Assembly: GCF_000091665.1 (NCBI RefSeq)
Contig: NC_000909.1
Coordinates: 964,603-996,602, forward strand
Direction of reading: 5' to 3'
Length of the DNA: 32,000 nt
DNA from: Methanocaldococcus jannaschii DSM 2661
Lineage (GTDB): Archaea; AGJL01; Methanococci; Methanococcales; Methanocaldococcaceae
Part shown: positions 3,739-17,362 of the stretch, piece after piece
Layout: the number at the start of each line of letters is the position of its first letter
Position numbering within the stretch: position 1 is the first letter of the stretch
Program-made: the position numbers and the translations under genes
Notes under the pieces: model-generated
Databases searched by the model: none
The model's input: the letters and a program-made list of their open reading frames with translations, nothing else
Told to the model about the DNA's origin: nothing

Positions 3739-4953
3739 GTGTCCATCTTGAAGAAATACAAAGACATGTATCCAGATGAAAATGGAAAGTTTGGCATTTA
3801 CGGAGGTAAATTTGTTCCAGAAACATTGATGCCAGCCATAGCTGAATTGGAAGAAGCATTTAAGAGATTTTGGATAAACAATGAAGGAAACTTTAGAGAA
3901 GAGTTCTATGCTTTATTGAGGGATTACGTTGGAAGACCAACACCATTATATTATGCTGAGAGATTGAGTGAAGAACTTGGTTGTAAAGTTTATTTAAAGA
4001 GAGAAGATTTAGCACACTTAGGAGCTCATAAAATAAACAACGCCTTAGGACAAGCTTTGTTAGCTAAAAAGATGGGTAAAAAGAGAGTTATAGCTGAAAC
4101 TGGAGCTGGACAGCATGGAGTTGCTACTGCAGCAGCATGTGCAAAGCTTGGATTAGAATGCATAATATACATGGGAGCTAAAGACGTTGAAAGGCAAAAA
4201 TTAAATGTTTTTAGGATGGAGTTGATGGGAGCTAAGGTTATTCCAGTATTTGGAGGCTCACAGACATTAAAAGATGCTGTAAATGAAGCTTTGAGAGATT
4301 GGACAACCAACGTTAGAACTACCTACTATTTGCTTGGTTCTGCCTTAGGACCTCATCCATACCCAATGATGGTTAGAGAATTCCAAAGAGTTATTGGTAA
4401 AGAACTTAAAGAGCAGATATTAGAAAAAGAGGGAAGATTGCCAGATGTTATCGTTGCATGTGTTGGAGGAGGAAGTAATGCAATAGGGGCATTTTATGAG
4501 TTTTTGGATGATGACGTAGAGCTTTACGCTGTTGAGGCTGGAGGTAAAGGGATAGAAACTGGAATGCATGGAGCTTCATTATGTGCTGGAGAGGTTGGAG
4601 TTTTGCATGGAGCTAAGATTTATGTTAAAGAGGATGAGTTTGGGCAGATAGAAGAAAGTTACAGTATTTCAGCAGGTTTAGATTATCCTGGAGTAGGACC
4701 TGAGCTTTCATTTTTAAAGGATGAGGGAAGGATTAAAGCAGTTTGTGTAACTGATGACGAAGCTTTAGAGGCATTTCAATTGCTATGTAGGTTAGAAGGT
4801 ATTTTACCAGCATTGGAAAGTTCTCATGCCTTAGCTTATGCTGTTAAATTGGCTGATAAATTAGATAAAGATGATATAATGGTTATTAATTTGTCTGGAA
4901 GAGGGGATAAGGACGTTCAGACTGTTGCTAAGGCATTGGGAAGGGAGATTTAA
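3739..4953 (+). CDS. trpB: tryptophan synthase beta chain
   Basis: 404 aa with the PLP lysine context HLGAHKINN and [11 protein letters not shown] start at 3739; in-frame alternatives are TTG 3748 and ATG 3766. Confidence 0.95.
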
Positions 4954-4987
4954 AGACATATTCGATTACTTGAGACAATCTTAAGAG

Positions 4988-5106
4988 ACATTAAAGGGAC
5001 TAAAAGCCCTTTAATGTATCCGTTCTGGTCAAGACACCATAGGACTTCGCCCTATTGGGATACCCATTTAAATTAAGATTTTGATCAACCTTTTCTAAAA
5101 AGGTTG
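4988..5106 (+). promoter_or_regulatory. cluster of three stem-loops in the trpB-trpA spacer (possible leader, processing site or small RNA)
   Basis: H1: 4988-4998 acattaaaggg pairs with 5007-5017 ccctttaatgt (11 bp, 8-nt loop). H2: 5016-5021 gtatcc pairs with 5058-5063 ggatac and encloses a locally GC-rich 36 nt. H3: 5086-5094 caacctttt pairs with 5098-5106 aaaaggttg (9 bp). Confidence 0.35.
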
Positions 5107-5144
5107 TTCGGGCAGCTTTTACTAAAAAGTTGGAGTGGATGATT

Positions 5145-5984
5145 ATGAAATTAGCAGAAAAATTTGAAGAGTTAAAAAACAAAGGAGAAAAGGCATTTGT
5201 TGCATTTTATGTGGGAGGAGACCCAAACTTGGAAATTTCAGAAAAGGCATTAGAAGTTATTTGTAAGCATGCTGATATTGTTGAGATAGGTATTCCATTT
5301 TCTGACCCTGTTGCAGATGGAATTACAATACAAAAAGCAGATGTTAGAGCTTTAAACAGTGGCATGAATCCATTGAAGGCATTTGAGTTGGCTAAAAAAT
5401 TGAATGAAAAAGCTCCAAATGTTCCAAAGGTGTTCTTAACCTACTATAACATAATATTTAAGATGGGAGAGGAGGAGTTCGTTAAAAAATGTAAAGAGGC
5501 TGGAGTTTCTGGGATTATAGTTCCAGATTTGCCAATTGAAGAGGCTGATAGCTTATACAATTACTGTAAAAAGTATGGAGTTGATTTAATATTTTTAGTT
5601 GCCCCAACAACACCTGATGAAAGGTTAAAGAAAATTTTAGAAAAGTGTAGTGGGTTTGTTTATGTTGTTTCTGTAACTGGGATTACTGGAGCGAGAGAGA
5701 AAGTAGCTGAAGAGACGAAAGAGTTAATTAAGAGAGTTAAAAAGTTTTCAAAAATCCCTGCCTGTGTAGGGTTTGGAATCTCAAAGAGGGAGCATGTTGA
5801 GGAAATAACTGAAATAGCTGATGGAGCTATTGTAGGAAGTGCGATTGTTAAGATTGTTGAAAAACATTTAGATGAGAATGGACAAATAAAGGATGAGGAA
5901 AAATTCCTAAAGGAGTTGGAGGAGTTTGTTAAAAATCTAAAGGAAGGGACTAAAAAGAAGGCTAAAGTAGCTATAAAAAATTAA
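5145..5984 (+). CDS. trpA: tryptophan synthase alpha chain
   Basis: TIM-barrel TrpA sequence (EIGIPFSDPVADG, GFGIS). The ORF is open from TTG 5130. GGAG at 5132-5135 favours ATG 5145, with ATG 5139 as the alternative. Confidence 0.9.
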   Translation: MKLAEKFEELKNKGEKAFVAFYVGGDPNLEISEKALEVICKHADIVEIGIPFSDPVADGITIQKADVRALNSGMNPLKAFELAKKLNEKAPNVPKVFLTYYNIIFKMGEEEFVKKCKEAGVSGIIVPDLPIEEADSLYNYCKKYGVDLIFLVAPTTPDERLKKILEKCSGFVYVVSVTGITGAREKVAEETKELIKRVKKFSKIPACVGFGISKREHVEEITEIADGAIVGSAIVKIVEKHLDENGQIKDEEKFLKELEEFVKNLKEGTKKKAKVAIKN

Positions 5985-9895: not shown

Positions 9896-10003
9896 AGAGA
9901 AACATTAAAAGACCTTGCTTAACCTTAATCTTGCCTTATTACAATATTTTTAGAAAAATAAAAAGTAAAAATAAAAGCAAATCCTTAATCTTTGGTGATA
10001 TTG

Positions 10004-13000
10004 ATGGAGAGGTATGAAATCCCTAAAGAGATTGGAGAAATAATGTTTGGCTTGTTGTCTCCAGATTACATAAGACAGATGTCAGTTGCTAAGATAGTTA
10101 CACCAGACACTTATGATGAAGATGGTTATCCAATAGATGGAGGTTTAATGGACACAAGATTGGGAGTTATAGACCCAGGTTTAGTTTGCAAAACATGTGG
10201 AGGAAGGATTGGAGAGTGTCCAGGGCATTTTGGGCATATAGAGTTGGCTAAACCAGTAATTCATATAGGATTTGCCAAAACAATATACAAGATATTGAAG
10301 GCAGTTTGCCCACACTGTGGAAGAGTAGCAATAAGTGAAACTAAGAGGAAAGAAATTTTGGAAAAGATGGAAAAATTAGAGAGAGATGGAGGAAACAAGT
10401 GGGAGGTTTGTGAAGAGGTTTATAAAGAAGCTTCAAAAGTTACAATCTGCCCACACTGTGGAGAGATAAAGTATGATATAAAGTTTGAGAAACCAACAAC
10501 CTACTACAGAATTGATGGAAATGAGGAAAAAACATTAACTCCATCAGATGTTAGAGAGATTTTAGAGAAGATTCCAGATGAAGATTGTATCTTACTCGGC
10601 TTAAACCCAGAGGTTGCAAGGCCAGAGTGGATGGTTCTCACCGTTTTGCCAGTTCCACCAGTAACTGTAAGGCCATCAATTACCTTGGAAACTGGAGAGA
10701 GAAGTGAAGACGATTTAACTCACAAGTTAGTTGATATCATCAGAATCAACAATAGATTAGAGGAGAATATAGAAGGAGGAGCACCAAACTTAATTATTGA
10801 GGATTTATGGAATCTGTTGCAGTATCACGTAAATACCTACTTCGATAACGAAGCTCCAGGTATTCCACCAGCTAAGCACAGAAGTGGAAGACCATTAAAA
10901 ACCTTAGCTCAGAGATTAAAAGGTAAAGAAGGAAGGTTCAGATACAACTTAGCTGGTAAGAGGGTTAATTTCTCATCAAGAACAGTTATCTCTCCAGACC
11001 CATGTTTAAGTATTAATGAAGTTGGAGTTCCAGAGGTTGTGGCTAAAGAGCTAACCGTCCCAGAGAAGGTAACGAAATACAACATTGAGAGAATTAGGCA
11101 GTTATTAAGAAATGGTTCAGAGAAACACCCAGGAGTTAATTATGTTATAAGAAAGATGATTGGTAGAGATGGAACAGAGCAGGAATATAAGGTTAAGATA
11201 ACTGAAAGCAATAAAGACTTCTGGGCAGAGAATATAAGAGAAGGAGATATTGTTGAAAGGCACTTAATGGATGGAGATATTGTCTTATACAACAGACAGC
11301 CATCACTGCATAGAATGTCTATTATGGCACATAGAGTTAGAGTTCTCCCATACAGAACATTTAGACACAATTTATGCGTATGTGTAGATGGAGACACCAC
11401 AGTGTTGTTAGATGGGAAATTAATTAAAATTAAGGACTTAGAAGATAAATGGAAAGATGTCAAAGTTTTAACTTCAGATGATTTAAATCCAAAACTAACT
11501 TCATTAAGCAAGTATTGGAAATTAAACGCAGATGAGTATGGAAAGAAGATTTATAAAATAAAAACAGAGCTTGGAAGAGAAATTATAGCAACAGAAGACC
11601 ATCCATTCTATACAACAAATGGTAGAAAGAGATGCGGTGAGTTGAAAGTTGGAGATGAAGTTATAATATATCCAAACGACTTCCCAATGTTTGAAGATGA
11701 CAATAGAGTAATAGTTGATGAAGAAAAAATCAAGAAGGTAATTAATAACATTGGAGGAACTTACAAAAATAAAATTATTAATGAGCTAAAAGATAGGAAG
11801 TTAATTCCTTTGACATACAATGACCAAAAGGCATCAATATTGGCAAGGATTGTTGGACATGTAATGGGAGATGGTTCTTTAATAATAAACAATAAAAATT
11901 CAAGAGTTGTATTTAGAGGAGATATTGAGGATTTAAAAACAATAAAAGAGGACTTAAAAGAATTAGGTTATGATGGGGAGGAAATAAAACTACATGAAGG
12001 AGAAACTGAAATAACAGATTACAACGGCAAGAAAAGAATAATTAAAGGCAAAGGTTATAGCTTTGAAGTTAGGAAAAAATCGTTATGCATACTATTAAAA
12101 GCCCTTGGTTGTGTAGGTGGAGATAAAACTAAAAAGATGTATGGCATTCCAAATTGGATTAAAACTGCTCCAAAGTATATAAAGAAAGAGTTTTTATCAG
12201 CCTACTTCGGTTCGGAATTAACAACTCCAAAAATTAGAAATCATGGGACTTCATTTAAAGAGTTATCATTCAAAATAGCTAAGATTGAGGAGATATTTGA
12301 CGAAGATAGATTCATTAAAGACATTAAAGAGATGCTAAAAGAATTTGGTATTGAATTAAAGGTTAGGGTTGAAGAAGGCAATCTAAGAAAAGATGGTTAT
12401 AAAACAAAAGTTTATGTTGCGTCAATATACAACCATAAAGAATTCTTTGGAAGAATTGGATATACCTATGCTAACAAAAAAGAAACATTAGCAAGATATG
12501 CTTATGAATACCTCCTTACAAAAGAGAAATATCTAAAAGACAGAAACATTAAAAAATTAGAAAATAACACCAAATTTATTACATTTGATAAGTTTATAAA
12601 AGAGAAATGCCTTAAGAATGGATTTGTAAAAGAAAAAATTGTAAGTATTGAAGAAACAAAAGTAGATTATGTCTATGATATAACTACAATCTCAGAAACT
12701 CACAATTTCATTGCAAACGGCTTTTTAACAGGAAATTGCCCGCCCTACAACGCTGACTTTGATGGAGATGAGATGAACTTACACGTTCCACAATCAGAGG
12801 AGGCAAGAGCAGAGGCAGAAGCTTTAATGCTTGTAGAAAAACACATCCTTTCACCAAGATTTGGAGGGCCTATAATTGGAGCTATACACGACTTTATTTC
12901 AGGAGCTTATCTCTTAACCTCAAACTACTTCACAAAAGATGAAGCTACTTTAATCTTAAGAAGTGGGGGAATAAAGGATGAGTTATGGGAGCCAGATAAG

Positions 13001-14029
13001 GTAGAGAATGGAGTTCCATTATACTCCGGTAAGAAGATATTCAGTAAAGCATTACCAAAAGGATTGAATTTGAGATATAAAGCAAAGATTTGTAGAAAGT
13101 GTGATGTGTGCAAAAAAGAGGAATGTGAATACGATGCCTATGTTGTAATAAAAGATGGGGAGTTAATTAAAGGAGTTATTGATAAAAACGGTTACGGGGC
13201 AGAGGCAGGTTTAATCTTACACACAATAGTTAAAGAGTTTGGTCCAGAAGCTGGAAGAAAATTCCTTGACTCAGCTACTAAGATGGCAATAAGGGCAGTG
13301 ATGTTAAGAGGATTTACTACAGGAATTGATGATGAAGATTTACCAGAAGAAGCATTAAAAGAGATTGAAAAAGTCTTAGATGAGGCAGAAGAGAAAGTTA
13401 AAGAAATCATCGAGAAATATGAAAGAGGAGAACTTGAATTGCTTCCAGGTTTGAACTTGGAGGAGTCAAGGGAGGCATATATAAGCAATGTTTTAAGAGA
13501 GGCAAGAGACAAAGCTGGAGCTATTGCTGAGAGATACTTAGGTTTGGATAACCATGCGGTTATCATGGCAGTTACTGGGGCGAGAGGGAACATCTTAAAC
13601 TTAACACAGATGGCGGCATGTTTAGGGCAGCAGTCAGTTAGAGGTAAGAGAATCTTTAGAGGTTACAGGGGTAGAGTATTGCCTCATTTCGAAAAAGGAG
13701 ATTTAGGAGCAAGGTCTCACGGGTTTGTTAGAAGTAGTTATAAGAAGGGGTTAAGTCCAACAGAGTTCTTCTTCCACGCTATGGGAGGTAGAGAAGGATT
13801 GGTTGACCAGGCAGTTAGAACTGCTCAGTCTGGTTACATGCAGAGAAGATTAATTAACGCTCTACAAGACTTAAAGACAGAGTTCGATGGAACCGTTAGA
13901 GATTCAAGAGGAATTATGATTCAATTTAAGTATGGAGAGGATGGAATTGACCCAATGCTTGCTGATAGAGGTAAGGCAGTAAATATTGACAGAATAATTG
14001 ATAAGGTTAAGATGAAGTATAACCAATAA
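10004..14029 (+). CDS. rpoA1: DNA-directed RNA polymerase subunit A' (Rpo1N), interrupted by an in-frame intein
   Basis: Rpb1 N-terminal motifs (Zn-binding CxxC...CPGHFGH, RPEWM, NADFDGDEMN). The ORF is open from 9992, and ATG 10004 follows GGTGA. The host sequence ...YRTFRHNLCV | CPPYNADFDGDEMNLH is split by 452 foreign codons. Confidence 0.95.
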   Translation: MERYEIPKEIGEIMFGLLSPDYIRQMSVAKIVTPDTYDEDGYPIDGGLMDTRLGVIDPGLVCKTCGGRIGECPGHFGHIELAKPVIHIGFAKTIYKILKAVCPHCGRVAISETKRKEILEKMEKLERDGGNKWEVCEEVYKEASKVTICPHCGEIKYDIKFEKPTTYYRIDGNEEKTLTPSDVREILEKIPDEDCILLGLNPEVARPEWMVLTVLPVPPVTVRPSITLETGERSEDDLTHKLVDIIRINNRLEENIEGGAPNLIIEDLWNLLQYHVNTYFDNEAPGIPPAKHRSGRPLKTLAQRLKGKEGRFRYNLAGKRVNFSSRTVISPDPCLSINEVGVPEVVAKELTVPEKVTKYNIERIRQLLRNGSEKHPGVNYVIRKMIGRDGTEQEYKVKITESNKDFWAENIREGDIVERHLMDGDIVLYNRQPSLHRMSIMAHRVRVLPYRTFRHNLCVCVDGDTTVLLDGKLIKIKDLEDKWKDVKVLTSDDLNPKLTSLSKYWKLNADEYGKKIYKIKTELGREIIATEDHPFYTTNGRKRCGELKVGDEVIIYPNDFPMFEDDNRVIVDEEKIKKVINNIGGTYKNKIINELKDRKLIPLTYNDQKASILARIVGHVMGDGSLIINNKNSRVVFRGDIEDLKTIKEDLKELGYDGEEIKLHEGETEITDYNGKKRIIKGKGYSFEVRKKSLCILLKALGCVGGDKTKKMYGIPNWIKTAPKYIKKEFLSAYFGSELTTPKIRNHGTSFKELSFKIAKIEEIFDEDRFIKDIKEMLKEFGIELKVRVEEGNLRKDGYKTKVYVASIYNHKEFFGRIGYTYANKKETLARYAYEYLLTKEKYLKDRNIKKLENNTKFITFDKFIKEKCLKNGFVKEKIVSIEETKVDYVYDITTISETHNFIANGFLTGNCPPYNADFDGDEMNLHVPQSEEARAEAEALMLVEKHILSPRFGGPIIGAIHDFISGAYLLTSNYFTKDEATLILRSGGIKDELWEPDKVENGVPLYSGKKIFSKALPKGLNLRYKAKICRKCDVCKKEECEYDAYVVIKDGELIKGVIDKNGYGAEAGLILHTIVKEFGPEAGRKFLDSATKMAIRAVMLRGFTTGIDDEDLPEEALKEIEKVLDEAEEKVKEIIEKYERGELELLPGLNLEESREAYISNVLREARDKAGAIAERYLGLDNHAVIMAVTGARGNILNLTQMAACLGQQSVRGKRIFRGYRGRVLPHFEKGDLGARSHGFVRSSYKKGLSPTEFFFHAMGGREGLVDQAVRTAQSGYMQRRLINALQDLKTEFDGTVRDSRGIMIQFKYGEDGIDPMLADRGKAVNIDRIIDKVKMKYNQ
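11381..12736 (+). mobile_element. intein with LAGLIDADG homing-endonuclease domain inside rpoA'
   Basis: Starts at Cys codon tgt 11381 (CVDGDTTVLLDG, block A) and ends ...ANGFLTGN at 12736, followed by the +1 Cys of CPPYNADFDGD. 1356 nt = 452 codons. Dodecapeptide motifs LARIVGHVMGDGSL and KKEFLSAYFGSE. Confidence 0.92.
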
Positions 14030-14103: not shown

Positions 14104-16683
14104 ATGGACATGGAAGCATTAAAACAAAAAATTGAAGGTTTAGATATACCACAATCATTAAAGGATGAGTTGTTTGAAAAGTTATCAAAAGAGAAGGATT
14201 TGACAGAAGAGATGGTAGATGAGATTATTGATGAGGTTGTTAATGCCTATAGAAAGGCTTTAGTTGAGCCTTATGAGGCGGTAGGAATTGTTGCTGCTCA
14301 ATCCATTGGAGAGCCTGGGACTCAGATGTCTCTACCTTATGAAGAAAAGATTATAATCAAAGAAGGAGAGTTTATAAAGCCAGTTGAAATTGGAAAGTTA
14401 GTTGATGAGATGATTGAGAGATTTGGATTTGAGAAGATTGGAAATAGTGAGGTTTGTGATTTGCCTATTGACATCTATGCCTTAAGCTTAGACCAAGATG
14501 AAAAAGTGCATTGGAAGAGGATAATAAGCTGTATAAGACATAAGCATAATGGAAAATTGATTAAAATAAAGACAAAGTCAGGTAGGGAGATAACTGCAAC
14601 ACCATATCACTCCTTTGTTATAAGAAAGGACAACAAAATAATCCCAGTTAAGGGTAGTGAGTTGAAGATTGGAGATAGAATTCCAGTTGTAAAGCACATA
14701 CCCGCAAACTGTGTTGAGGCTATAAACATCTCCGACTATGTTTCTGGTAACTATGTTGTAGATAACATTAACAATAAAATAGCTCCAAAAATAAATGGTA
14801 AATCGATTCCAAACAACATAAAATTAGATTATGACTTTGGCTATTTCATAGGAATCTACTTAGCAGAGGGTTCAGTAACTAAATACTTTGTTTCAATTTC
14901 AAACGTTGATGAACTTATCTTAAATAAAATTAGAGCATTTGCAGATAAACTTGGTTTGAATTATGGAGAGTATGATAACAACAACGGATTCGCAGAAAGC
15001 CATGATATAAGGATTTATTCATCAACATTGGCAGAATTTTTATCAAACTTTGGCACATCATCAAACACTAAAAAGATTGCTGAGTTTGTGTTTGGAGCTA
15101 ATAAGGAGTTTGTTAGAGGATTAATTAGAGGTTACTTTGACGGAGATGGAAATGTAAATGCAGATAGAAAGGTTATAAGAGTTACTTCAAACTCAAAAGA
15201 GTTGATTGATGGAATTGCAATATTGTTGGCAAGATTTAACATCTTTAGTATAAAAACTAAGACGAAAAATCAGTTTGTACTGATAATTCCACACAGATAT
15301 GCTAAAAAATTCCATGAAGAAATTAACTTCTCAGTTGAAAAGAAAAAATCTGAATTAGAAAGGCTTGTAAGTAGCTTAAATGATGATAAAACCTACGATT
15401 CAATCGACATGATTCCTTCAATTGGAGATGCATTAACTAAGTTGGGAGAGAAAGTTGATTATCCAAAGGTAATTTTAAAGAAATTTGAAAGAAAGCAGAA
15501 AATTGGAAGAGCTACATTACAAAGACACTTAAGAAGAATAGAAGAATTGGCAGTTAAGAAAGGAGTAAATATCTTAGCTCTAAAAGAGTATTGGTTGTTA
15601 AAGAAGGCAGTTGAAAGTGATGTAATTTGGGATGAAATTGTTAAGATTGAGGAAATAAGTTGTGATAAAAAATACGTTTATGACATAAGCGTTGAAGGTT
15701 TAGAGACATTTACAACCTTTGATGGAGTTTTAACTCATAACACAATGAGAACGTTCCACTATGCAGGGGTTGCGGAGATTAACGTTACCTTGGGTTTGCC
15801 AAGGATGATTGAGATTGTAGATGCAAGAAAAGAGCCATCAACACCAATTATGACTATCTATCTAAAAGAAGAATATAAAGATAATAGAGAAAAAGCTGAA
15901 GAGATAGCGAAGGAGATTGAAAGTTTAACCTTGGGAAGTATAGCTGAAAGCATAAGTATTGATTTATGGACTCAATCTATAAAAGTTGAGTTGGATGAGA
16001 ATAGATTAGCTGATAGAGGATTAACAATAGACGATGTTATTGAGGCAATTAAGAAAAAATTAAAGGTAAAGATTGATGTTGATGGAACTACTTTATATTT
16101 AAAAATAAAGACTCCATCAATAAAAGCTCTTAGAAAGAGAATCCCAAAAATCAAAAATATACAATTAAAAGGAATTCCAGGAATTGAGAGGGTTTTAGTT
16201 AAAAAAGAGGGAGGAGAATATGTTTTATATACTCAAGGTTCAAACTTAAGAGAAGTGTTTAAAATTGATGGGGTTGATACAACAAGAACAATAACCAATA
16301 ACATCATTGAAATCCAAGAAGTTTTAGGTATTGAGGCAGCAAGAAACGCTATAATTAATGAAATGAGAAACACGTTAGAGCAACAGGGGTTGGAGGTTGA
16401 TATAAGGCATTTGATGTTAGTGGCAGATATAATGACTGCTGATGGGGAAGTTAAGCCAATTGGAAGACATGGAGTTGCTGGAGAGAAAGGTTCTGTCTTA
16501 GCAAGAGCTGCATTCGAAGAAACTGTTAAGCATCTATATGCTGCTGCAGAGAGGGGAGATGTTGATAAACTGAAAGGGGTTATAGAAAACGTTATTGTTG
16601 GAAAACCAATATACTTAGGAACTGGATGTGTTGAACTAACAATAGATAGGGAGTACGAAGAGGGTAAAAATATGGAAGAGTAA
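14104..16683 (+). CDS. rpoA2: DNA-directed RNA polymerase subunit A'' (Rpo1C), interrupted by an in-frame intein
   Basis: Rpb1 C-terminal motifs: SIGEPGTQM | TMRTFHYAGV (trigger-loop region) split by 471 codons, then GIEAARNAIINE and VGKPIYLGTG. AAGGTGAG RBS 5 nt upstream of the ATG. Confidence 0.95.
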   Translation: MDMEALKQKIEGLDIPQSLKDELFEKLSKEKDLTEEMVDEIIDEVVNAYRKALVEPYEAVGIVAAQSIGEPGTQMSLPYEEKIIIKEGEFIKPVEIGKLVDEMIERFGFEKIGNSEVCDLPIDIYALSLDQDEKVHWKRIISCIRHKHNGKLIKIKTKSGREITATPYHSFVIRKDNKIIPVKGSELKIGDRIPVVKHIPANCVEAINISDYVSGNYVVDNINNKIAPKINGKSIPNNIKLDYDFGYFIGIYLAEGSVTKYFVSISNVDELILNKIRAFADKLGLNYGEYDNNNGFAESHDIRIYSSTLAEFLSNFGTSSNTKKIAEFVFGANKEFVRGLIRGYFDGDGNVNADRKVIRVTSNSKELIDGIAILLARFNIFSIKTKTKNQFVLIIPHRYAKKFHEEINFSVEKKKSELERLVSSLNDDKTYDSIDMIPSIGDALTKLGEKVDYPKVILKKFERKQKIGRATLQRHLRRIEELAVKKGVNILALKEYWLLKKAVESDVIWDEIVKIEEISCDKKYVYDISVEGLETFTTFDGVLTHNTMRTFHYAGVAEINVTLGLPRMIEIVDARKEPSTPIMTIYLKEEYKDNREKAEEIAKEIESLTLGSIAESISIDLWTQSIKVELDENRLADRGLTIDDVIEAIKKKLKVKIDVDGTTLYLKIKTPSIKALRKRIPKIKNIQLKGIPGIERVLVKKEGGEYVLYTQGSNLREVFKIDGVDTTRTITNNIIEIQEVLGIEAARNAIINEMRNTLEQQGLEVDIRHLMLVADIMTADGEVKPIGRHGVAGEKGSVLARAAFEETVKHLYAAAERGDVDKLKGVIENVIVGKPIYLGTGCVELTIDREYEEGKNMEE
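14329..15741 (+). mobile_element. intein with LAGLIDADG homing-endonuclease domain inside rpoA''
   Basis: Starts at Ser codon tct 14329 (SLPYEEKIII...) and ends ...FDGVLTHN at 15741, followed by +1 Thr (TMRTFHYAG). 1413 nt = 471 codons. Motifs FGYFIGIYLAEGSV and FVRGLIRGYFDGDGNV. Confidence 0.92.
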
Positions 16684-16737: not shown

Positions 16738-16797
16738 GGGGATGATGATACATCGATGTGCTGAATATTGATGATGAACGCGCCCTTCTCTGACCTT
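16738..16797 (+). ncRNA. C/D-box sRNA (2'-O-methylation guide)
   Basis: C box AUGAUGA 16742-16748; 12-nt guide 16749-16760; D' CUGA 16761-16764; 4-6-nt spacer from 16765, depending on which register of the overlapping tgatgatga (16769-16777) is read as C'; C' (A)UGAUGA 16771-16777; 12-nt guide 16778-16789; D box CUGA 16790-16793. Short terminal pairing GGGG/CCUU. The box spacing matches the archaeal 12-nt rule exactly. Confidence 0.85.
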
Positions 16798-16850
16798 TAA
16801 AAAATTTAAACAAAAATTGATTTAATTTTTTGATGTTTTTATCCTATCCA

Positions 16851-16867
16851 AAAAGTATATAAATATA
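16851..16867 (+). promoter_or_regulatory. putative archaeal BRE/TATA promoter for the rpl30e transcription unit
   Basis: aaaagtatataaatata has a purine-rich BRE-like AAAAG followed by a TATA box. It lies about 35 nt upstream of the left arm of the leader helix. The same AAAAGTATWTA motif recurs upstream of rps12. Confidence 0.4.
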
Positions 16868-16898
16868 GAGAAACTATTATCGAAAACCAATATTCTTA

Positions 16899-17021
16899 CC
16901 GGTAGGGAGTTAGGACTTTCGCAGGAGTAAATGTTTTATATTGAATATTGACATTTTTTAGATGTCTAAGTTCCAAAGTTAAAATATATTTGCCTGCGAA
17001 AGTCCTAAGAAATCCCTCCGG
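16899..17021 (+). promoter_or_regulatory. long-range 25-bp interrupted helix in the rpl30e leader
   Basis: 16910-16925 ttaggactttcgcagg pairs perfectly with 16993-17008 cctgcgaaagtcctaa (16 bp). 16899-16908 ccggtaggga pairs with 17013-17021 tccctccgg (9 bp, one bulged T). The two helices are joined by an asymmetric internal loop, G opposite GAAA. The helix encloses a 67-nt AT-rich loop and ends 26 nt before the rpl30e ATG. Confidence 0.55.
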
Positions 17022-17047
17022 AGTAAAAAATGAGAAGGAGGGAGAAT

Positions 17048-17362
17048 ATGGATGTGAATAAAGCAATTAGAACCGCAGTAGATACAGGTAAAGTAATTTT
17101 AGGTTCAAAAAGAACAATAAAATTTGTTAAACACGGAGAAGGTAAGTTAGTAGTTTTAGCAGGAAACATTCCAAAAGATTTAGAAGAGGATGTCAAATAC
17201 TACGCTAAGTTATCAAACATCCCAGTTTATCAACATAAAATAACATCATTAGAACTGGGAGCGGTTTGTGGGAAACCTTTCCCAGTTGCTGCTCTTTTGG
17301 TTTTAGATGAAGGGCTCTCAAACATTATGGAGCTGGTAGAGAAAAAGGAAGGTGGTGAATAA
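17048..17362 (+). CDS. rpl30e: 50S ribosomal protein L30e
   Basis: 104 aa starting [23 protein letters not shown]..., of the L30e/L7Ae fold family. AGGAGGG RBS at 17035-17041. The in-frame ATG at 17030 would add only MRRREN and lies within or before the RBS. Confidence 0.9.

Follow-up and report, generated by a model that had tools for sequence, protein, structure and literature searches.

Why should the gene for ribosomal protein L30e (rpl30e) of Methanocaldococcus jannaschii DSM 2661 be preceded by a 25-bp long-range RNA helix? The helix lies in the spacer upstream of rpl30e, within the 32,000-nucleotide stretch analysed here (contig NC_000909.1, positions 964,603 to 996,602 of the forward strand; hereafter the window, in whose numbering positions are given), and all features of the leader described below are on the + strand. 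A first-pass annotation had suggested an L30e-responsive leader for the rpl30e operon. This is still the best reading, although the G/GAAA internal loop which had been put forward as the site of recognition is very probably not that site. With a probability of about 0.5, the leader is a translational switch responding to L30e, in which one fold (fold A) is the ON state and a second (fold B), locked by L30e, is the OFF state. Autoregulatory leaders of archaeal ribosomal proteins are barely known, while those of bacteria are well charted. One known archaeal case is the L1 operon in Methanococcus and another is L7Ae; a literature search of incomplete coverage found no paper on an archaeal L30e leader.

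A conserved long-range helix upstream of rpl30e

The helix consists of two parts, both evident on inspection. P2 is a perfect 16-bp helix between 16910-16925 (TTAGGACTTTCGCAGG) and its exact reverse complement at 16993-17008, and it is recovered by RNAfold and in the alignment of relatives. P1 joins 16899-16908 (CCGGTAGGGA, CCGG-U-AGGGA) to 17013-17021 (TCCCTCCGG) by 4 + 5 bp, with U16903 bulged. The two meet at a junction where G16909 stands opposite GAAA (17009-17012). As first described, the helix ends 26 nt before the true ATG (17048), but its distance to AGGAGGG (17036-17042), which contains the ribosome-binding Shine-Dalgarno (SD) sequence, is 14-15 nt and not 13 nt.

The existence of this long helix is well supported. 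The minimum free energy (MFE) given by RNAfold was -55.1 kcal/mol, compared with -23.2 ± 3.7 kcal/mol in shuffled sequences (n = 200), a z-score of -8.65. Perfect inverted repeats in the 364-nt spacer reach 16 nt, while those in shuffles (n = 300) did not exceed 12 nt. The GC content is 29% in the spacer, 57% in the arms and 19% in the apex. P1 and P2 are still the predicted MFE structure at 85°C, at about -9 kcal/mol, an energy which, like all those for 85°C, is an extrapolation. As only one of 134 mapped 5' untranslated regions (UTRs) of M. jannaschii was predicted to be stable at 85°C (Zhang 2009), the leader is unusual for this organism. No comparable inverted repeat was found elsewhere when the 32-kb window was scanned, and the arm sequence is present in the window as a single copy; an origin from a repeat family or a miniature inverted-repeat transposable element (MITE) was rejected. 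A search of the window with Rfam 15 gave no match at the gathering threshold, and at E ≤ 10 the helix was hit only by spurious miRNA-precursor models, with no local match of an rRNA-like kind.

Orthologous spacers were collected from genomes (L001-L007), from contigs carrying individual L30e proteins (L081-L086 and L167-L171) and from metagenomes (L087-L094). Twelve distinct leaders of the jannaschii/vulcanius type were aligned (alignment A1), and in these the expectation that the arms would be conserved and would covary was borne out. P1 is invariant. The pairing of P2 is kept throughout; six pairs show G-U variants, and two have undergone compensatory changes (C-G to U-A in M. fervens, and G-C to U-A). 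Paired cells make up 94.4% of the alignment, compared with 35 to 53% when the partners are slid against each other, and RNAalifold independently recovers P1 and P2. There are 23 G-U cells compared with 8 A-C cells, showing that selection acts on the + strand RNA; on the same counts, a minus-strand RNA and a palindrome acting as DNA were both rejected. By comparison, pairing of UUCUUA (16893-16898) with UGAGAA (17031-17036), present in some MFE folds, is not conserved beyond the closest relatives.

P2 encloses an apex of 67 nt in the window; in L003, L005 and M. vulcanius the apex has 12-20 nt. At its base, an AU-rich helix, P3, pairs 16931-16938 (AUGUUUUA) with 16980-16987. It is kept, with wobble changes, in seven long-apex relatives (91.9% of alignment cells paired) and is missing from short-apex ones. 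The remainder (16939-16979), which includes a local hairpin (GACAU..AUGUC), is hypervariable, being absent or replaced in L003, L004, L005, L081, L082 and L087-L092. The P3 3' strand overlaps a stretch (16981-16990) previously taken for a second TATA-like box. Substitutions in this stretch keep the pairing through G-U (A-to-G changes pair as U-G) and weaken the match to a TATA box, and the stretch is absent from short-apex relatives; an internal promoter at this position is unsupported.

The apex also holds a T6 run (16955-16960), and non-homologous T runs occur in the leaders of L003, M. vulcanius and M. voltae, with none in others. Oligo-T is a terminator signal in archaea, and premature termination inside the leader at the T6 run is conceivable. 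In L003, about 50 extra nucleotides lie between the promoter and P1. They hold GACUCUCGCAG (approximately 2880-2895 of that sequence), which repeats the P2 5' strand in its L004 form. This insert looks like the remnant of a duplication or recombination within the leader.

An invariant block and a predicted competing SD hairpin

Next to the helix on its 3' side, and partly coinciding with the P1 3' strand, lies a block of the form CCUC(C/U)-GGAG-[A-rich, 5-7 nt]-UGAGAA-GGAGG (the part after the linker being UGAGAAGGAGG), with the SD as its last element. It is invariant in 12 Methanococcales lineages, drawn from Methanocaldococcus, Methanotorris, L094, L167/L170, L169 and Methanococcus voltae, whose L30e has the lowest identity among them (58%). 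The anti-SD, CCUC(C/U), is present in 12 of the 12, and the sole variable part is the A-rich linker, which is UAAAAA in L167 and AAAAC in M. voltae. In the window, the P1 3' strand (UCCCUCCGG, 17013-17021) supplies the anti-SD (17013-17019), followed by GGAG (17020-17023), the linker UAAAAAA (17024-17030), UGAGAA (17031-17036) and the SD itself (GGAGGGA, 17037-17043).

The anti-SD therefore has two partners, the distal P1 strand and the SD. Pairing with the SD (17013-17019 with 17037-17043, 7 bp) gives the hairpin of fold B, with an MFE of -12.3 kcal/mol (z = -3.3), and RNAfold selects it as the MFE structure in L004, L082 and L088. In fold B G17020, G17021 and A17022 are placed opposite A17036, A17035 and G17034, while U17031, G17032 and A17033 are bulged. 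This arrangement resembles a kink-turn (K-turn). GGAG would be its non-bulged (n) strand (3n G, 2n G, 1n A, -1n G), and UGA-GA-A its bulged (b) strand (L1-L3, 1b G, 2b A, 3b A). At the level of sequence, tandem G-A and A-G pairs (G17034-A17022 and A17035-G17021) adjoin a 3-nt bulge in 12 lineages. After the G-A pairs follows a helix of 4-8 bp in all lineages, CCCUCC/GGAGGG in the window, which would be the non-canonical (NC) helix with the SD as its 3' strand, and 3b-3n is A-G. The linker would form the apical loop, so the Methanococcales motif is at best K-loop-like. The block at 17013-17043, and not the G/GAAA loop, is the candidate protein site.

Fold A (P1, P2 and P3) and fold B are mutually exclusive, as they share the anti-SD strand. 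Constrained folding of 18 leaders gave a free energy difference between them, ddG(B-A), of -3.1 to +4.6 kcal/mol, so that by computation the one strand has two partners of comparable stability. For the full leader of the window the computed mean unpaired probability of the SD was 0.52 at 37°C and 0.85 at 85°C; once the 5' arms had been removed it fell to 0.00-0.10. As the SD is freer with the 5' arms than without them, the predicted job of the long helix is to hold the anti-SD together with G17020 and G17021 and to keep the SD open. An anti-sequestor is the best reading of it, with the P1 5' strand acting as an anti-anti-SD. These calculations also bear on the proposal that two leader isoforms exist, one structured and one not. 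An RNA without the left arm is indeed predicted to have its SD sequestered, but the box that was to give the second start is a strand of P3.

The upstream partner of the anti-SD differs by lineage. In the jannaschii group it is the long-range P1, clamped by P2. Methanotorris has a local GGAGG-AAAAA-CCUCC, M. voltae has GGAGG...CCUCU, and L094, L167 and L170 share the form GGGG/GAGG-ACUUC...GAAG-CCUC (GGGG/CCUC in L094, GAGG/CCUC in L167 and L170). The upstream pairing in M. indicus is GGGAUAUU/AAUAUCCC.

The switch may operate as follows. The region 16885-17047 would be the 5' leader of the L30e-NusA-S12-S7 mRNA. When L30e is scarce, the P1 3' strand (CCCUCCGG) would be tied up in pairing with the distal strand (CCGGUAGGGA), and the long helix, as anti-sequestor, would keep the SD open. 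L30e in excess over 23S rRNA, and hence free, would bind and lock fold B, in which CCCUCC pairs with the SD (GGAGGG) and the enclosed GGAG...UGAGAA gives three stacked purine pairs and a UGA bulge, a K-turn/K-loop-like motif of the type found in yeast RPL30. The SD would then be covered and translation of L30e repressed, possibly together with that of the downstream cistrons. The system proposed is thus one of K-turn-mediated feedback by a protein of the L7Ae/L30e family, with an added thermostable anti-sequestor helix. If correct, it would offer a naturally occurring translational switch that responds to a protein, is thermostable and has a defined anti-sequestor helix.

Likeness to known sites and rival explanations

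Yeast RPL30 provides the closest comparison. The L30-binding RNA used experimentally, as listed in a supplementary table, is GGGACCGGAGUGUCGCAAGACGCAGAGAUGGUCC, and its K-turn strands are ACC-G-GA-GUGUC (n) and GACGC-AGA-GA-U-GGU (b). The sequence CCGGAGU of the yeast n strand is identical at 7 of 7 positions to 17018-17024, and on the b strand four of six positions match (AGA-GA-U in yeast, UGA-GA-A in the window), including L2, L3, 1b and 2b. Compared with the verified probe, the window has the same kind of purine loop, with GGAGU on the n strand and an AGAGA-type b strand. In both, the site lies in the transcript of its own regulator, with the terminal loop on the side of the canonical (C) helix, and the helix that follows the G-A pairs immediately on the 3' side holds the initiation signal (AUG in yeast, the SD in the window); 17013-17043 lies 5-35 nt before the L30e ATG. 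Reviews describe the yeast site as a simple K-turn with 2b-2n = A-G and 3b-3n = U-G; it has a 5-bp Watson-Crick C helix and also controls splicing. In the window, by contrast, a 7-nt A-rich loop stands in place of the C helix, 3b-3n is A-G, the SD is occluded, a long-range helix competes, and the site is a candidate by sequence. Sulfolobus acidocaldarius L30e is reported to bind yeast RPL30 mRNA and to regulate it in vivo. The aromatic residue F78 of M. jannaschii L30e aligns with yeast F85, the main RNA contact.

Other known systems share parts of this design. In archaea, L7Ae acts on its own mRNA as a repressor, by way of a K-turn in the 5' UTR which incorporates the SD (Daume 2017; Huang 2019). 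That leader and, by proposal, the present one are archaeal translational OFF switches in which an L7Ae/L30e-family protein would fold a marginally stable K-turn hairpin incorporating or abutting the SD. However, in the window the downstream gene is L30e and not l7ae, the protein is probably different, the bulge is UGA and not GAU, and the SD is in the NC helix; the free state has an explicit anti-sequestor helix, where that of the L7Ae system is unstructured. In the K-loops of archaeal box C'/D' and H/ACA small RNAs (sRNAs), a loop likewise closes the tandem G-A pairs on the C-helix side, and the NC stem is short. Unlike these, the window lacks the C/D box consensus (CGGA..GAGAAG as against CUGA..UGAUGA), has a loop of 11 nt and is an mRNA leader. 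The anti-anti-SD/anti-SD/SD platforms of bacterial riboswitches and ribosomal protein leaders also have mutually exclusive helices which share one strand and free or sequester the SD. The window differs in its archaeal host and in its proposed effector, a ribosomal protein binding the sequestering hairpin itself.

The core also occurs in other archaea. In most archaeal phyla and in Methanothermobacter, rpoA2 abuts or overlaps the L30e gene and there is no leader. A scan of spacers before L30e found the core 7-18 nt before the ATG at three further loci, two in Micrarchaeota (L019, CGCGG-G-GA-G[UA GCUC UGC]UGA-GA-A-CCGUG, and L016, GUGG-G-GA-G..AGA-GA-A-CCAU) and one in Desulfurococcales (L077, CGGG-G-GA-A..UGA-GA-A-CCUG), where the start codon lies inside the loop. 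L019 has a yeast-like C helix (G-C, U-G and A-U) closed by a tetraloop; the cores of yeast, L019 and M. voltae were compared in a manually built register table. The NC helices at the three loci are not SD sequences, and L016 and L019 differ by a compensatory change (U-A/C-G). For descriptors defined after the motif had been seen, GGA..GAGAA with at least 4 bp gave three observed matches compared with approximately 0.8 expected (P ~0.05), and GGAGU..WGAGAA gave two, both from one phylum, compared with approximately 0.07 expected (P ~0.002). Matches of GUCGAGAG..AUGAUCGAC in Bathyarchaeia were rejected, as they look like an effect of a TCGA palindrome and show no compensation. A further recurrence, GGAGU...(N)GAGAAGGUU with a flanking helix of 4-5 bp, was seen in L033/L042 (approximately 360-395), L025, L045/L051 and L057/L069. 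It repeats in Bathyarchaeia and Thermoproteota at a similar position within the upstream RNA polymerase gene, some 2.6-2.8 kb 5' of L30e; it is probably due to conservation of the coding sequence and was counted as background.

These occurrences allow a tentative suggestion, somewhat less likely than not, that L30e feedback through a single purine-loop motif (GGAGU/WGAGAW beside the initiation signal) goes back to a common ancestor of Archaea and eukaryotes. It would survive in Methanococcales, Micrarchaeota, one Desulfurococcales lineage and yeast, and in Methanocaldococcus would have been built into a hyperthermostable three-helix switch with the 25-bp long-range helix as SD anti-sequestor. 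If so, RPL30 feedback is not a yeast peculiarity but a protein-RNA pair conserved across the archaea-eukaryote divide.

Several points weigh against an L30e switch. The core of fold B consists of the SD and its complement and cannot covary, so comparison among relatives gives no proof of it; the two pairs which extend it are seen as C-G, G-U and A-U and are mismatched in four lineages. A Watson-Crick C helix is missing in Methanococcales, where zero to two pairs are possible (one G-C pair in M. voltae) and G17023 stands opposite A17030. An alternative register would make the GGAG/AGAA purine loop symmetric. M. villosus and one Methanothermococcus metagenome-assembled genome have lost the element, which is thus dispensable, and L006 and L169 have only weak upstream partners for the anti-SD. 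The energies at 85°C are, as noted, extrapolated. The enrichment of the core before L30e is modest, with two of the three hits in one phylum, and a generic K-turn descriptor is not enriched near L30e starts. Finally, L7Ae could be the binder instead of L30e.

This last alternative, in which L7Ae as the general archaeal K-turn/K-loop binder locks the same hairpin and brings the L30e operon into its regulon, is unlikely. In its favour, L7Ae binds K-loops without a C helix and represses several mRNAs through SD-proximal K-turns, and the Methanococcales motif has no C helix. The gene downstream is, however, that of L30e, and the n strand has the same sequence as in the yeast L30 site. In the bulge, A at L3 and G at L2 also agree with that site, and the sites of L7Ae have a GAU bulge or a bulged U where the window has UGA. 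Somewhat less improbable, though still on the unlikely side, is that no protein switch exists. The helix would then be a constitutive 5' UTR structure which protects from 5'-3' decay or stops an accidental anti-SD from closing the SD, and the invariant block would be an extended translation-initiation region, a double SD with an A-rich enhancer. In silico the helix does keep the SD open, the block does hold both GGAG and GGAGG, and such a view sits easily with a fold B that lacks proof from covariation and an element that two lineages can do without. It leaves unexplained why the anti-SD is retained, why 22 nt, some of them non-SD purines, do not vary across families while the linker does, and why there is a 7/7 match to the L30 site and the same core in Micrarchaeota leaders without a GGAGG SD. 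The distance from promoter to hairpin, which ranges from approximately 35 to more than 100 nt, also counts against a 5'-terminal protective hairpin.

The remaining explanations are poorer still. GGACUU...AAGUCC is kept from M. jannaschii to M. voltae, more than pairing demands, and P1-P2 might on this ground mimic the rRNA site of S7, S12 or the NusA KH protein, with feedback like that of S7 in the bacterial str operon. This is very unlikely, given that P2 tolerates compensatory and wobble changes, the apex is hypervariable and Rfam gave nothing resembling rRNA. An upstream open reading frame (uORF) from the AUG at 17030 (MRRR..), with GGAG as its own SD, could act on L30e translation through coupling or occlusion. 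The spacing in GGAGU-N6-AUG is good for initiation, and this AUG is the start in several annotations, but the frame and length vary among relatives (an in-frame extension, a stop after 5-10 codons, or out of frame) and in M. voltae the AUG is CUG; the uORF was rejected as a highly improbable candidate. Equally improbable is a DNA-level or mobile feature (a MITE or a protein-binding palindrome), a separate small RNA gene, or an attenuator using the T6 run. The repeat is long and inverted, the apex does hold a T6 tract, and a similar GC-rich 5' UTR, that of MJ1260, corresponds to a detected noncoding RNA (Zhang 2009); yet the arms are unique in the window, the G-U substitutions are strand-specific, T runs are not conserved, Rfam gave no match, and the element keeps its place between promoter and SD in all relatives. 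CTCCGGAG is palindromic in some lineages only, and others carry CTCTGGAG. Least credible of all is recognition of the G/GAAA loop by L30e or L7Ae. In the window it is indeed an asymmetric loop rich in purines, but it has no tandem G-A pairs and varies freely in sequence and size, which argues against its being a protein site: it is G/AAAAA in M. fervens, -/GAAA in L003 and L090 and an unrelated 8/6-nt loop in M. vulcanius and L005, and it is absent from Methanotorris, M. voltae and others.

Promoter, start codon and neighbouring features

A putative transcription factor B recognition element and TATA box (..TCCAAAAAGTATATA, 16845-16861) may form the promoter of the L30e operon, judging from consensus match and conservation. 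The TATA box would lie at approximately 16854-16861 (..CAAAAAGTATATAAATA), where AGTATATA matches the M. jannaschii consensus TWTATATA at six of eight positions, and all Methanococcales leaders collected have a conserved CAAAAAGTATA(T/A)AAATA on their upstream side. The published consensus is placed at about -31 to -24, with a preference for purine starts. From this spacing and preference, transcription is predicted to start at 16883-16887. The helix would then begin approximately 12-16 nt further downstream and be part of the mRNA leader. MJ1044 is absent from the genes with mapped start sites in Zhang 2009.

The coding sequence of rpl30e (17048-17362, +) matches Pfam Ribosomal_L7Ae (5e-24) and PDB 3CPQ, the M. 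jannaschii L30e structure (2.8e-64). ORF callers and several annotations (products of 110, 105 and 107 amino acids) take the ATG at 17030, within the leader block, as the start of L30e, and the crystallised construct 3CPQ also uses it (query residues 1-104 align to chain residues 7-110). In M. vulcanius, Methanotorris, L006, L007 and L094 this ATG is not in frame with L30e, which indicates that the true start is 17048. The correction affects several annotations and the crystallised construct.

The leader is flanked by the genes for RpoA'', which carries an intein, and for L30e, a NusA-like KH protein and S12. The 859-amino-acid rpoA'' product (14104-16683, +) has an intein with a LAGLIDADG homing endonuclease; the M. 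fervens protein is intein-free (387 amino acids), and inteins are also present in M. vulcanius, Methanotorris and L167. The rpoA' ORF (9992-14029, +; 1345 amino acids) is also oversized. Between rpoA'' and the promoter, 16738-16796 (+) has the features of a box C/D sRNA (C AUGAUGA, D' CUGA, C' UGAUGA, D CUGA). It scored 39.8 bits against snoPyro_CD (E = 6e-7), under the gathering score of 45. This sRNA is found upstream of L30e in all Methanocaldococcus relatives and still adjoins L30e in M. villosus (L085), where the upstream gene is not rpoA''. Elsewhere in the window, a 14-nt near-perfect inverted repeat with an 8-nt loop (GAGACATTAAAGGG/CCCTTTAATGTATC; 4985-5020, +) lies between the ORFs at 3739-4953 and 5130-5984.

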